Positions 9,056-49,138 of a DNA stretch of 64,000 bases are shown here, piece after piece. The position numbers were made by a program, and so were the translations under genes. The notes beneath the pieces are model-generated. The model was not told where the DNA came from. It worked only from the letters and a program-made list of their open reading frames with translations, and made no database searches. Positions within the stretch are counted from its first letter, which is position 1. Every line of letters starts with the position of its first letter. The stretch lies in IMG/VR virus record IMGVR_UViG_3300024581_002111, positions 14,309 to 78,308 of that record. The stretch is one strand, 5' to 3'. The DNA comes from a virus.

Positions 9056-9352
9056 TCATACGGGCTCTAAAATAATCTGTAATGGGTGCCCGCTGTGTCT
9101 AGCAACAATGGTCGATTCGTGTACTTTTTGTTCAGCAACTTCGTAACTGTAAGTACCAACTACTGCTTTGCCGTGTTCGTGTACTTCCATAGTGATATCC
9201 TGTGCACGTTCAATATCCTTGTTGAAAATTTCAATCAACAGATGTATCACAAATGCAACTGGAGTATAATCGTCATTCAAGAACACAACATTGTAACGCT
9301 GTGGGTATGCCAGTTTGGTCTGTGTTGTTGTTGCTGTTTGTGTTTTTGCCAT
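9056..9352 (-). CDS. clpS: ClpS N-end-rule adaptor
   Basis: VVFLNDDYTP, VHEHGKAVVG, YSYEVAEQK, HPLQ. Confidence 0.93.
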   Translation of the reverse strand: MAKTQTATTTQTKLAYPQRYNVVFLNDDYTPVAFVIHLLIEIFNKDIERAQDITMEVHEHGKAVVGTYSYEVAEQKVHESTIVARHSGHPLQIILEPV

Positions 9353-9406: not shown

Positions 9407-9874
9407 CTAAGAGATCGAAATCTTCTTAGGCTTGGCTTCCTCTGGAACGTTCAAGAATAAAACAATCTTGAGTATGCCGTCTCTGAGGGTAGCTGTTTGT
9501 ACTTCCACGTGCTCTGCAAGTCTGAAAGTTCTCTGAAAGTTTCTTTCTGCAATGCCTTTGTGAATGTACTCTACAGTGGAGTTAACATCTTCTGCTAACA
9601 CCGCACTACGACCTTCCACTTTGAGATGCTTGTCTTCTACAGTGATTTCAATATCTTCCTGCGTGAAGCCTGCAACTGCAAGTGTGATCTCATACGTTTG
9701 AGCTTCGGTTTCTTTGTCGGTAACACGAGCAACATTATACGGAGGATATCCGCTTGCGCTGATGTTAACTGGATTGGTGAACATTTCGTCGAACAATCTG
9801 TCAAAGCCGACGCTCATTTTATATAGAGGTGAGTTTAAAAGGTCAGTGGTGACCCTGAGTTGTTTGCTTGTCAT
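9407..9874 (-). CDS. hsp20: Small heat-shock protein (IbpA-like Hsp20)
   Basis: VGFDRLFDEM, YPPYNV, LAVAGF, YIHKGIAERNF, LRDGIL...PEEAKPKKISI. Confidence 0.95.
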   Translation of the reverse strand: MTSKQLRVTTDLLNSPLYKMSVGFDRLFDEMFTNPVNISASGYPPYNVARVTDKETEAQTYEITLAVAGFTQEDIEITVEDKHLKVEGRSAVLAEDVNSTVEYIHKGIAERNFQRTFRLAEHVEVQTATLRDGILKIVLFLNVPEEAKPKKISIS

Positions 9875-14185: not shown

Positions 14186-14335
14186 TTAAAAAGAATGGAT
14201 ATACAAGAACCAATTAATAAGTGCGATCAAACCTGCTTGCATGGTCACTGCTCCTAACACCACACAAGTGGGGAAAATTGCATTAGCCTTTGCAGGGTTG
14301 TCTTTGACCCATTGTTCAAGTTCCTTCTCTGTCAC
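14186..14335 (-). CDS. 49-aa single-TM protein (not in track)
   Basis: GTG start: MTEKELEQWVKDNPAKANAIFPTCVVLGAVTMQAGLIALINWFLYIHSF. Confidence 0.55.
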   Translation of the reverse strand: MTEKELEQWVKDNPAKANAIFPTCVVLGAVTMQAGLIALINWFLYIHSF

Positions 14336-14339
14336 ATCC

Positions 14340-15176
14340 TTATTTATCAAAGAATTTTTTAATGTGGGTGTATAAGTGATTTGCTATTGTTTTATGCCCT
14401 AATATAGAATAATGAATGTAGTCCACATGCGGCACCAAATGATATTGAGTCTGATTATGCTCATAGTCCTCATTTCTGTGTTCCGGCCAATAATCATTGA
14501 TAAACATATGATGTTTGCTAGAACCAGAGATTACTTCCACAGGAGAGTTATCTGGGTAATTGGTTTTCCACCAATCCAATATGGTATTTCCTGTGGCTTC
14601 CCACAGATACACATGTGGTATGTTGTGCTGTGCAAGAAACGCATCCAACATCAACCACTGAGTTGTAAAATACTCGTTGTCCATCTCTATATCTGAGCAG
14701 TAATTTTCTATTGCTGTGTGTAAGTTATGATCTTGTTCACAGAGTTGCCAGTCTTTGCTGTTCAGTTTGTATCGTGTGTAAATACCCCTGTTGGTCATAT
14801 CGATATTAGCAGTGTCTAAATTCTCGCTGTACCCCTCACCCATCAGTGACATTTCTTTTTCTCTGCGTATACCTACAGTATTAAAATGAGTCTGGGCCAT
14901 CTTACGTCCACTGCTGGTGCGACTCATCCAACTGCTGGCTAATTCCCTGCGTGTAACGTCAGTGAATTGTATAATCAACATGTCGGCATCAGTGAGTTCA
15001 CCATTGTGTACTGCATGCACAATTTGCCTGATACTGCGATAATTACTGCCGCCGCCGCCGGCTAGATGTACATAGTCATAGTTCATCTTTTCTGCAAGGT
15101 AATCGCCGTAACTGTGTGTGGTTTGTGTTCTATCTGCAATGCTACACCCAGCACTGAATACTCGTGGCTTACGCAT
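14340..15176 (-). CDS. SGNH/GDSL-like hydrolase or acyltransferase (paralog 1)
   Basis: AGCSIAD (block I), GGGSN (block II), HYSILGHKTIA (block V). Confidence 0.6.
   Translation of the reverse strand: MRKPRVFSAGCSIADRTQTTHSYGDYLAEKMNYDYVHLAGGGGSNYRSIRQIVHAVHNGELTDADMLIIQFTDVTRRELASSWMSRTSSGRKMAQTHFNTVGIRREKEMSLMGEGYSENLDTANIDMTNRGIYTRYKLNSKDWQLCEQDHNLHTAIENYCSDIEMDNEYFTTQWLMLDAFLAQHNIPHVYLWEATGNTILDWWKTNYPDNSPVEVISGSSKHHMFINDYWPEHRNEDYEHNQTQYHLVPHVDYIHYSILGHKTIANHLYTHIKKFFDK
14341..14348 (-). promoter_or_regulatory. Late promoter, 5 nt before GTG 14335
   Basis: GATAAATA-aggat-GTG. Confidence 0.65.
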
Positions 15177-15981
15177 AACTATGTTCCTTTATAAAATGTT
15201 CTAACAATTCAGCAATCTTCATGTGCCCAGTAATACTGAAATGAGAAAAATCTCCATTAACTGGATCGAGAGCGTAAGAGTTGCTGTCTAAATACCAAGC
15301 TGGAGCTCTGTACATGTCCCAGTGATTGCCAAGTACAAACTGATGTTTTACCATGCTGTTAATTTTATCCAACCACTGGCCACATATTTCTTCTTTGAAA
15401 GATTGGAAATTCCAAAACAGCATTAACTCGATGTTGTTAAAGTATAACAATGACTGCAAGCGCCATAAATCTAAATAGAAATTGTATTGATCAAGCTCTT
15501 CGATTACACCATATCTTTCTGTGTAAGTGTGATAAGTGGGGTCTGATGTGCCCTGTTGCCATCGATGACTTCCCATTTTAAAACGAGTAGTGTACACGTC
15601 ATTAACAACACAATCATAATGGGGATTGGTGTCAGGTATAAGTGTGCTGACTTTGTTTGGATCCTGCCTTTGACGTATTATGTCAAAGTCTGCTTTGCTC
15701 TTTTCTAAAAACTGCTTGCCCTTACGATGATAAGTCAGCCATGTGCTGGGTAGATCTCTGCGTGTGACCTCAGTGATTTGCCATATCACTGTGTCGCCGT
15801 CAGTGAGTTTGCCATCAATTAATGCCTCAGTGATGAGACGGACTGCACGTTGATTACTGCCACAGCCGCCCGAAAGATGCAGGTATTGCATGTTTAATGA
15901 TGAGCTTAGAAAATCGCCAAAACTGTGAGACACCTGTGTGCGATCAGAATAACTGCATCCTGCTACACACAGTGTGGACAT
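15169..15981 (-). CDS. SGNH/GDSL-like hydrolase or acyltransferase (paralog 2)
   Basis: AGCSYSD, GGCGSN, HFSITGHMKIA. Confidence 0.6.
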   Translation of the reverse strand: MSTLCVAGCSYSDRTQVSHSFGDFLSSSLNMQYLHLSGGCGSNQRAVRLITEALIDGKLTDGDTVIWQITEVTRRDLPSTWLTYHRKGKQFLEKSKADFDIIRQRQDPNKVSTLIPDTNPHYDCVVNDVYTTRFKMGSHRWQQGTSDPTYHTYTERYGVIEELDQYNFYLDLWRLQSLLYFNNIELMLFWNFQSFKEEICGQWLDKINSMVKHQFVLGNHWDMYRAPAWYLDSNSYALDPVNGDFSHFSITGHMKIAELLEHFIKEHSYA

Positions 15982-17196: not shown

Positions 17197-17601
17197 TTAA
17201 CGTAGGCCTGATTTACGCAAACGTGTAGCAACTGCATTCAACATATCTGAATGCTTTCTTCTTTTGCGCTTGCTTTTCATAAAAGAAATATCTGAGCTCA
17301 CCTGTACTGGAGCATCGCCGGTTGCTAATAATTTACGTTGTTCTCGCTGATGTCTCTTCACAGCAGAGTCCTTGGTTCTCTTCTTTTTAGCAGATGGCTT
17401 CTCGTAGTACTCTCGCTTGGCTAATTCCTTTTGCCTGTTGTCGTTCTCTAAGATTTTTTTGAGTCTACGCAATGCACCATTTACATCGTCGCCGCGGACA
17501 TAAACACTGGCACCACGAAACTCTTCTTTGGGCTCGTTAAACTTCTTTTTGTTTCTGTTGTTGAAGTTGCCTTTGTGCTTATTCCAATTGTTATTTTTCA
17601 T
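17197..17601 (-). CDS. rpsU: Ribosomal protein bS21 with basic N- and C-terminal extensions
   Basis: VYVRGDDVNGALRRLKK...KREYYEKPSAKKKR...AVKR. Start MKNN has GAGG and overlaps the clpX stop. Confidence 0.85.
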   Translation of the reverse strand: MKNNNWNKHKGNFNNRNKKKFNEPKEEFRGASVYVRGDDVNGALRRLKKILENDNRQKELAKREYYEKPSAKKKRTKDSAVKRHQREQRKLLATGDAPVQVSSDISFMKSKRKRRKHSDMLNAVATRLRKSGLR

Positions 17602-18868
17602 TGTTTCCTCTGTATAATTTGTAGTCTGTGTCGTCTTTGAATTTACCGTTTTCAAAGTGTAAAACAGGAACCACATTGTTTACTAAAGGATATTTATTAA
17701 ACACTACTTTATTGACTCCTTGTTTTCTGAGTTCAGGCGCACGATACATCACACTGATCAATGTATTCTCTAGGATGCCTTTTAGTCCTCTAGCACCTAA
17801 GTTGTTGTTGTGTGCTTGTTCAGCAACTTCATCTAAGAATTCATCTTCCAATACCAAATCAATCTCATCGTATTGCAACAATTCTTGATATTGAGATACC
17901 ACACTGTTTTCTACGCCATCTAATATCAAACGCAGTTGCGGTATATCCAAATAATCCAGCACAGCAATCACAGGCATTCTGCCTACCAACTCTGGTATCA
18001 GGCCGTAATCAGTTACGTCTTTGCTGTTTGCTTGCTGTAGAATATAATTTTTGCTGACGCCTTCTTGTTTGAGTTTAGATCCAAACCCAATTGAGCTTTT
18101 CTTATTCAATCTCTTTTTGATGACGTCTTCAAGGCCAACGAAAGCGCCGCCTAGAATAAACAGTATTTTGCTGGTGTCAAATTCTATGTAATCTTCAGAT
18201 GTGGTACGCTTGCCATTGTTGGATAAATGTGTTTTGATTTTTACCACAGATCCTTCAATTAAACGCAACAGTGCTTGTTGAACACCTTCGCCGCTGACAT
18301 CTCTGGTGCTGGTGTTGCTTTCCCCTCTGCGAGCTTTTTTGTCAACTTCGTCTATGTATACTATGCCAGTTTGCGCTTTTTCTACATTGTAGTCGGACAC
18401 ACTTAGTAATCGTTCTAGTACACTTTCTACGTCTTCGCCTACATATCCAGCTTCAGTCAATGTAGTGGCATCAGCAATAGCAAATGGTACATGCAACTTT
18501 TTTGCCAACGTTTTAGCAAACAGAGTTTTACCTGTACCTGTGGCACCAATTAATAACACATTGCTTTTGTCAATGGTTGACTCAGATTGTAACCTTTTAT
18601 AGTGATTGTATGTGCTGACTGCTAAAAGCTCTTTGGTGTTGTTGTGACCAATAATGTGACTATCGAGATGTTCTTTAATTTCTTGTGGTGTTGGTATGTT
18701 GCTTAAATCAAACTCGGTTTTGTTTTTTGAGGACTCTTCGACAACGATGTTGTAACTGAGCACAATACATTCGTTGCATATATAAACACTGGGTCCTGCT
18801 ATTAACTTGTCTACTTCGCTTCTGCTTTTGCCGCAGAAACTGCAATGTAGATTTTTATTGTCTGTCAT
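17591..18868 (-). CDS. clpX: ClpX AAA+ unfoldase
   Basis: CSFCGK..ICNEC Zn domain, [32 protein letters not shown] loop, GARGL. Confidence 0.95.
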
Positions 18869-18892: not shown

Positions 18893-18900
18893 TATTTATC
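18893..18900 (-). promoter_or_regulatory. Late promoter for the clpX-rpsU operon
   Basis: GATAAATA. Confidence 0.7.
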
Positions 18901-48898: not shown

Positions 48899-48974
48899 TG
48901 GAGCGGGAAACCGGGTTCGAACCGGCGACCTCAACCTTGGCAAGGTTGCGCTCTACCAACTGAGCTATTCCCGC
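48899..48974 (-). tRNA. trnG: tRNA-Gly(GCC)
   Basis: GCGGGAA.../TTCCCGC-T-CCA, anticodon loop TT-GCC-AA, TTCGA T-loop, 76 nt. Confidence 0.97.
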
Positions 48975-48979
48975 AAAAC

Positions 48980-49055
48980 TGGTGGAGCTGATAGGGATCG
49001 AACCTACGACCTACTGGATGCAAACCAGTCGCTCTCCCAACTGAGCTACAGCCCC
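48980..49055 (-). tRNA. trnA: tRNA-Ala(UGC)
   Basis: GGGGCTG acceptor with G3:U70, loop TT-TGC-AT, encoded CCA. Confidence 0.97.
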
Positions 49056-49062
49056 CAAATCT

Positions 49063-49138
<76 letters not shown>

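Follow-up and report, generated by a model that had tools for sequence, protein, structure and literature searches.

A 134-residue bS21 encoded by a phage

The DNA analysed here (the window) is a stretch of 64,000 nucleotides, positions 14,309 to 78,308 of an 82-kb IMG/VR virus contig (record IMGVR_UViG_3300024581_002111) with a GC content of about 42%. CheckV rates this contig as 24% complete, so that the virus, which is marine and uncultured, is probably a giant phage. On the minus strand, positions 17197 to 17601 of the window hold an open reading frame of 134 codons followed by TAA, whose product reads MKNNNW...RLRKSGLR. The protein matches PF01165 (residues 33-84, E 9e-13, 48.1 bits against a cut-off of 27) and TIGR00030 (residues 32-86, E 4e-13, 48.9 bits against a cut-off of 28.95), and its best PHROG is phrog_21469, 'ribosomal protein S21'. 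We rejected a longer frame of 159 amino acids that starts at 17676: the methionine of the 134-residue form is the point at which 95% of 142 homologues align.

HMM matches, phmmer and the secondary structure of an AF2 model delimit a bS21 core at residues 32-91 (17329-17508, minus strand), and in phmmer residues 39-95 align with bS21 chains from ribosome structures in the PDB, that of E. coli included (E 1e-8 to 1e-7). The residues that contact RNA in ribosome-bound bS21 are kept (ALRRxKK ... RE-F/Y-YEKP ... KRKR ... KR), and their columns are invariant or nearly so in alignments of the family. E. coli bS21 (rpsU, 71 amino acids) shares the core and the conserved RNA-contact residues of this region, and probably its helical elements, but it lacks the 31-residue arm that precedes the core here, and the arm that follows the core runs about 35 residues past the E. 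coli end (PMC7550191). The tail of gamma- and betaproteobacterial bS21 closes with RLY or KLY, which is absent from our protein, its end being ...RKSGLR.

At 134 amino acids the product is about double the E. coli protein or the 55 positions of the Pfam model, and falls outside the usual bS21 range of about 55-75 amino acids; the median of its subfamily is 132. The reading frame, the size and the Pfam and TIGRFAM matches thus agree with a preliminary description of this locus, made from the letters alone, which had proposed an extended bS21 of 134 amino acids, roughly doubled in size. The gene is a genuine phage-encoded bS21 of a long, phage-specific subfamily, and a genome-wide search found it to be the single bS21 copy in the 82-kb record.

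When the 7 kb around the gene were compared by megablast with 50,697 phage records, no match was returned, indicating that the phage has no close relative among cultured phages, and PHROG scans of ten large open reading frames placed it in no named lineage. The nearest bacterial cores belong to Desulfobulbia and others (about 50% over 50 amino acids) and are uninformative on the host.

The junction with clpX and the surrounding genes

Directly upstream of the bS21 gene lies a phage clpX of 425 amino acids (17591-18868, minus strand), recognized by NF003745 (E 8e-151) and by its zf-C4_ClpX and AAA_2 domains. The ATG of bS21 (17601-17599) stands 8 nt ahead of the TAA of clpX (17593-17591), and this ATG-TAA overlap of 11 nt does place the start of bS21 inside the stop region of clpX, as had been claimed. 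A Shine-Dalgarno (SD) sequence for bS21, AGAGGA, can be read inside clpX 4 nt upstream of the ATG (17606-17611, minus strand), where it is spelled by the codons for Arg-Gly in the C-terminus of ClpX (..YRGNNEK). We compared 8 junctions of clpX-linked relatives (L004, L007, L009, L091 and L095-L098; the counterpart in the window is 17602-17625, minus strand) and found TAY-AGA-GGA, once as CGA-GGA and once as AGA-GGT, 4 nt before the bS21 ATG in 8/8 of them. In an alignment of ClpX, the corresponding R420 and G421 are invariant, and this invariance may partly reflect the double use of their codons as the SD sequence of bS21.

At the other end of the gene, the bS21 TAA abuts the ATG of a cytidylyltransferase fused to a cupin (PF01467 plus PF01050; 16423-17196, minus strand), and most relatives show TAA-ATG or an overlapping TAATG at this point. 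On contigs of up to 199 kb, the genes clpX, bS21, cytidylyltransferase-cupin, ferritin and IscU again follow one another in this order, and one long-form contig carries a cassette of the PA5oct type. Among metagenomic loci, clpX was found upstream of the long bS21 in L004-L007, L009, L091 and L095-L098. Within a set of 80 IMG/VR loci, counting those with upstream sequence, clpX lies directly upstream of bS21 in 25/25 long-tailed as opposed to 5/51 normal-tailed loci, the loci being phylogenetically non-independent. Linkage to clpX is a fixed property of the long C-terminal form.

Several further observations concern the neighbourhood. In the relatives L004, L005 and L006 (7203-8131), genes for a copper protein resembling plastocyanin and for a cytochrome c separate ferritin from the cupin gene; this insert is absent from the window, where the same operon has two SGNH-like paralogues (14340-15981) in its place. 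A ClpS homologue (at about 9074-9304, minus strand; PF02617, E 9e-28) adjoins hsp20 (9407-9874), and three tRNA genes (Gly-GCC, Ala-TGC and Thr-TGT) are clustered at 48899-49138 on the minus strand. The 82-kb record yielded neither clpP nor IF3; as it is about 24% complete, this does not imply their absence from the phage. A different phage bS21, at locus L166 (IMG/VR 3300033388_002335), also lies behind clpX and ends in ...RKRLY, the beta- and gammaproteobacterial head-contact motif of Watson et al. 2020.

Translation and transcription signals

SD-like cores (GGAG, GAGG or AGGA at positions -18 to -4) precede 31/85 naive starts of the window, compared with 6% of random positions inside genes, in line with the abundance of SD sites noted earlier. 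This enrichment shows that the phage uses SD pairing, as its host presumably does too.

The sequence TATAAATA occurs 13 times in the window against 2.45 expected, a five-fold excess. A version of it with one mismatch, GATAAATA, lies 24 nt before the clpX ATG (18893-18900, minus strand) and can tentatively be described as a late-promoter-like box. It overlaps the stop codon of the upstream gene; relatives show GGTAAATA at this place, and conservation is partial. The preliminary description had assigned bS21 to a late operon. A late-like box in front of clpX speaks for that assignment, but the box carries a mismatch, coincides with a stop codon and is conserved in part, so that we regard the term 'late operon' as plausible. 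In the relative L007, TATAAATA itself stands 5 nt before the clpX ATG. Elsewhere in the window, four starts on the minus strand (6740, 20979, 24454 and 40521) are preceded, 5-6 nt ahead, by a (T/G/C)ATAAATA box and not by an SD sequence; late mRNAs made from such boxes would have no leader or almost none.

The gene is matched, with 0-3 mismatches, by contigs of four metatranscriptome libraries from aquatic samples or seawater. Two of these RNA-library contigs bridge the clpX/bS21 junction (17335-17662 and 17433-17663), and one bridges bS21 and the cytidylyltransferase-cupin gene. The RNA contigs are consistent with co-transcription of bS21 with clpX, bearing in mind that such libraries can carry DNA.

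Two conserved arms flank the core

The N-terminal arm (residues 1-31; 17509-17601, minus strand) is rich in Asn and Lys, has a net charge of +6 and is predicted to be disordered. The C-terminal arm (residues 92-134; 17200-17328, minus strand; net charge +8) consists of a conserved G95, a linker, a basic motif and a helix at residues 111-131, and terminates in ...RLRKSGLR. Its motif, F-M-K-S-K-R-K-R-R-K (residues 107-116; 17254-17283, minus strand), is near-invariant as judged from column frequencies.

Among 5.8 billion proteins searched by a word index, 192 homologues were retrieved; they measure about 110-150 amino acids, are 45-93% identical and mostly align near full length. Both the N/K-rich N-terminal arm and the basic C-terminal arm that the preliminary description had placed around the core are therefore present and conserved, in about 190 homologues. 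When representatives at 50% identity were searched exhaustively with HMMER, 25 clusters came out ahead of ordinary bS21, at E<=1e-10. In an alignment of 142 sequences the medians are 132 amino acids for the whole protein, 30 for the N-arm and 41 for the C-arm, with median charges of +6 and +9 for the two arms. The motif, in the form (M/L)-K-(S/G/T)-K-R-x-(R/K)-R, is found in 124/142 of these homologues about 40 residues past the EKP motif; the near-invariant stretch can also be written (M/L)-K-(S/G/T)-K-R-K-R-R-K, and the confidently predicted helix comes after it. Conserved C-arm columns (n=142) are K109 (95%), K111 (94%), R112 (88%), R114 (84%), R115 (93%) and G95 (92%). Conservation of the N-arm is looser and, by column frequencies, centres on M1, W/F6, F/Y13, N14 and G30. 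Homologues with a short or absent N-arm and a full C-arm exist, which makes the C-arm the defining feature of the subfamily. Three metagenomic proteins (P0164, P0185 and P0259) have unrelated sequence in place of the N-arm and the first core helix and retain the latter half of the core together with a degenerate C-arm; these may be recombinants or assembly chimeras.

We compared the gene with that of its closest relative, L095 (93% amino acid identity, dS 0.56-1.0), and obtained dN/dS values of 0.015 for the N-arm, 0.089 for the core and 0.064 for the C-arm; beyond this pair dS is saturated. In comparisons over larger distances, the arms change 2-3 times faster than the core and are still alignable. 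Judged from these substitution patterns, both arms are real protein under purifying selection.

An AF2 model built on the family alignment has core helices at residues 40-53, 56-64 and 71-94, a confident C-arm helix at 111-131 (pLDDT about 90 for residues 101-130) and a disordered N-arm (pLDDT about 50). The pTM of 0.44 leaves the relative placement of the helices uncertain. Foldseek matched the model weakly to bS21m and phage S21 (E 0.02-1), and fold searches of the PDB, BFVD and the ESM Atlas gave weak S21 matches and nothing on the arms. Weak fold matches are to be expected, because bS21 folds on rRNA.

With the arms taken on their own, Pfam and NCBIfam gave nothing meaningful at E<=10, and an ESM Atlas feature search with residues 95-134 gave no usable match; by these searches and a PDB profile search, relatives of the C-arm among known ribosomal or RNA-binding families were not detectable. 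The KRKRRK stretch had raised the suspicion of a bS22/mS38-like peptide fused to bS21. The C-arm and bS22/mS38 (COX24_C, PF08213) have in common a short basic helix that could be placed on 16S rRNA, and KSKRKRRK superficially resembles the KKRRKR core of bS22. We reject this candidate for lack of homology: PF08213 had no match in the record at E<=10, hhalign gave a probability of 1.3% when the C-arm profile was compared with bS22 of M. smegmatis, and a profile search of PDB chains returned chance matches only and did not recover bS22.

Occurrence of the long form and its relation to known bS21

Among 185,579 prokaryote species (one genome each), 510 relatives were found, 509 of which cover only residues of about 27-96. 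The single relative that covers the arms is L009 (CAZXGO010000084.1), a 10.7-kb contig binned as an uncultured Chitinophagales MAG. Its gene order, clpX, long bS21, cytidylyltransferase-cupin, is that of the phages, and on account of this synteny we take it for a phage contig, most likely mis-binned in a bacterial MAG; possibly it gives a weak hint of the host. The 185,579 species genomes thus yielded no long form that could be assigned to a cell, and in our searches the form was confined to phage DNA. It was not seen in cultured phages either: a tblastn search of 50,697 phage records (INPHARED) with the whole protein gave matches limited to residues 29-91, and none to the C-arm. The long family is, however, abundant in marine metagenomes, where database labels call its members simply S21.

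Phage bS21 as such is a known class (PMC6375957, PMC9723584, PMC7550191), linked partly to Bacteroidetes hosts, as the preliminary description had stated (PMC9723584, PMC9976891). Like the gene described here, short bS21 genes are carried by large T4-like or jumbo phages: HTVC008M of Pelagibacter (67 amino acids), PA5oct of Pseudomonas (68 amino acids) and SCTP-2 of Salicola (86 amino acids). These proteins have at most a short N-arm, and neither a C-arm nor the basic motif. In PA5oct and SCTP-2, bS21 lies directly behind clpX with ClpS downstream, and QueD and Hsp20 are nearby in PA5oct. The bS21 of the Methylophilales phage Melnitz (Kyanoviridae; 90 amino acids) has a homologous Asn/Lys/aromatic N-arm: in BLASTP it aligns from residue 13 of our protein through the core with 42% identity, covering N-arm residues 13-31. 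It lacks the C-arm, however, and does not adjoin clpX.

The bS21 proteins of huge freshwater phages of Bacteroidetes, which have clade-specific C-termini, were proposed to replace the host copy and to favour late phage mRNAs (PMC9723584). The hosts of those phages do not use SD sequences, and their bS21 gene is found within the structural module, on the opposite strand, whereas here SD sites are enriched six-fold and bS21 is in the clpX operon. A 130-residue form is not described by Chen et al. 2022 (PMC9723584), and in the literature we found no description of a bS21 of about 130 amino acids, of the C-arm motif or of coupling to clpX. What is new relative to known phage bS21 is the long form with its C-arm motif and its fixed position behind clpX.

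Discussion

The 2-A structure of the E. coli ribosome shows the final 13 residues of bS21 as a helix lying alongside the SD helix, with the terminal RLY packed against h37 and stacked on A1167 at the base of the head (PMC7550191). This end point corresponds to residues 95-99 of the phage protein (alignment offset 28), where the family has G-(D/E)-(W/A)-P and our protein T-G-D-A-P. With the end point at these residues, the C-arm would emerge next to the SD/anti-SD helix and the gap between head and platform, which makes reasonable the geometric premise of the preliminary description, namely that the arms may reach the mRNA exit or the anti-SD. This position is the one part of the reading given below with support from outside; binding and selectivity are what we infer. 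In bacteria, bS21 supports the anti-SD and damps motion of the head, and its loss favours leaderless mRNA (PMC10491246). The bS21 of HTVC008M enters E. coli 70S ribosomes, so a phage homologue can be incorporated; this short protein, the only phage bS21 tested, crippled E. coli translation in vitro (PMC6375957), and the benefit and selectivity of phage bS21 are therefore unproven.

We lean, somewhat beyond an even balance, towards a joint reading in which the core takes the host site, the arms make RNA contacts, the host copy is displaced and the handling of mRNA leaders may be changed. The protein would be made from the clpX operon, by ribosomes that end clpX, or that bind the embedded AGAGGA, and initiate bS21 eight bases ahead of the clpX stop. 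[quoted passage not shown] By such contacts the phage protein could prevail over host bS21 and change the way in which mRNA leaders are treated on the platform, and the disordered, basic N-arm may give extra electrostatic grip or reach. As the preliminary description suggested, the arms might in this way bias initiation among SD-led, leaderless and host mRNAs.

The linkage to clpX invites another explanation, which we hold to be rather unlikely: phage ClpX, with host ClpP or alone as an unfoldase, would remove or degrade host bS21, or would set the level of the phage copy, through the arms, which would serve mainly this hand-over and not the choice of mRNA. It is compatible with the joint reading, and it echoes the speculation of McNutt et al. 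that phages use a protease against host bS21 (PMC9976891). The presence of clpX upstream of 25/25 long-tailed but 5/51 normal-tailed IMG/VR loci, the conserved overlap with its embedded SD sequence, the adjacency of clpX and bS21 in PA5oct and SCTP-2 as well, and ClpS and Hsp20 in the same cassette all fit an exchange of this kind. However, the association comes largely from one phage clade and is phylogenetically non-independent, and since short bS21 also follows clpX, arms are not necessary for the linkage. Moreover, the bS21 genes of HTVC008M and Melnitz have no adjacent clpX, clpP was not found in the 82-kb record, and a contact between ClpX and bS21 is purely hypothetical. A more far-reaching version, which we consider improbable, is that of a device for converting ribosomes: ClpX would strip or degrade host bS21, the long bS21 would lock in through its C-arm, which would partly fill the chamber of the SD/anti-SD helix under the 30S head, at its base, and the converted ribosomes would prefer late phage mRNAs, among them the leaderless ones that seem to arise from ATAAATA boxes 5-6 nt ahead of start codons.

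We give still less credence to a role outside the ribosome, in which the core would have been recruited as a general binder of RNA or DNA, with the arms as the binding surface; the protein might then act as a chaperone of RNA, accompany a phage RNA or be packaged as a basic protein. Arms as basic as these (family medians +6 and +9), one of them disordered, would suit such a binder, and the OLE RNP is a reported partner of bS21 outside the ribosome (PMC12054373). The core, however, keeps the residues common to ribosome-bound bS21 and at larger distances evolves more slowly than the arms, and the short phage homologue of HTVC008M does enter ribosomes (PMC6375957). Equally doubtful is that the arms are a tolerated, lineage-specific decoration of a protein that acts like any phage bS21, for although phage bS21 tails vary widely (67 to about 140 amino acids), C-termini diverge between clades (Chen et al., PMC9723584) and the N-arm is of low complexity, the motif is near-invariant among sequences only 45% identical, arm lengths are conserved (medians 30 and 41 residues), arm dN/dS is 0.015-0.064 at the shortest distance and the C-arm helix is confidently predicted.

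Under the joint reading, the parts of the protein that belong to phages only are attached to bS21 at just the end that is in contact with the SD helix and the 30S head. Deletions of the arms and mutants of the motif would be clean handles for deciding whether a phage bS21 is no more than a stand-in for the host protein or has an effect of its own on initiation, and the coupled position behind clpX makes testable the published speculation that phages bring a protease for the bS21 swap. Phage bS21 is the commonest viral ribosomal protein, and the marine abundance of the long family means that these questions may be relevant to the takeover of translation by large ocean phages.
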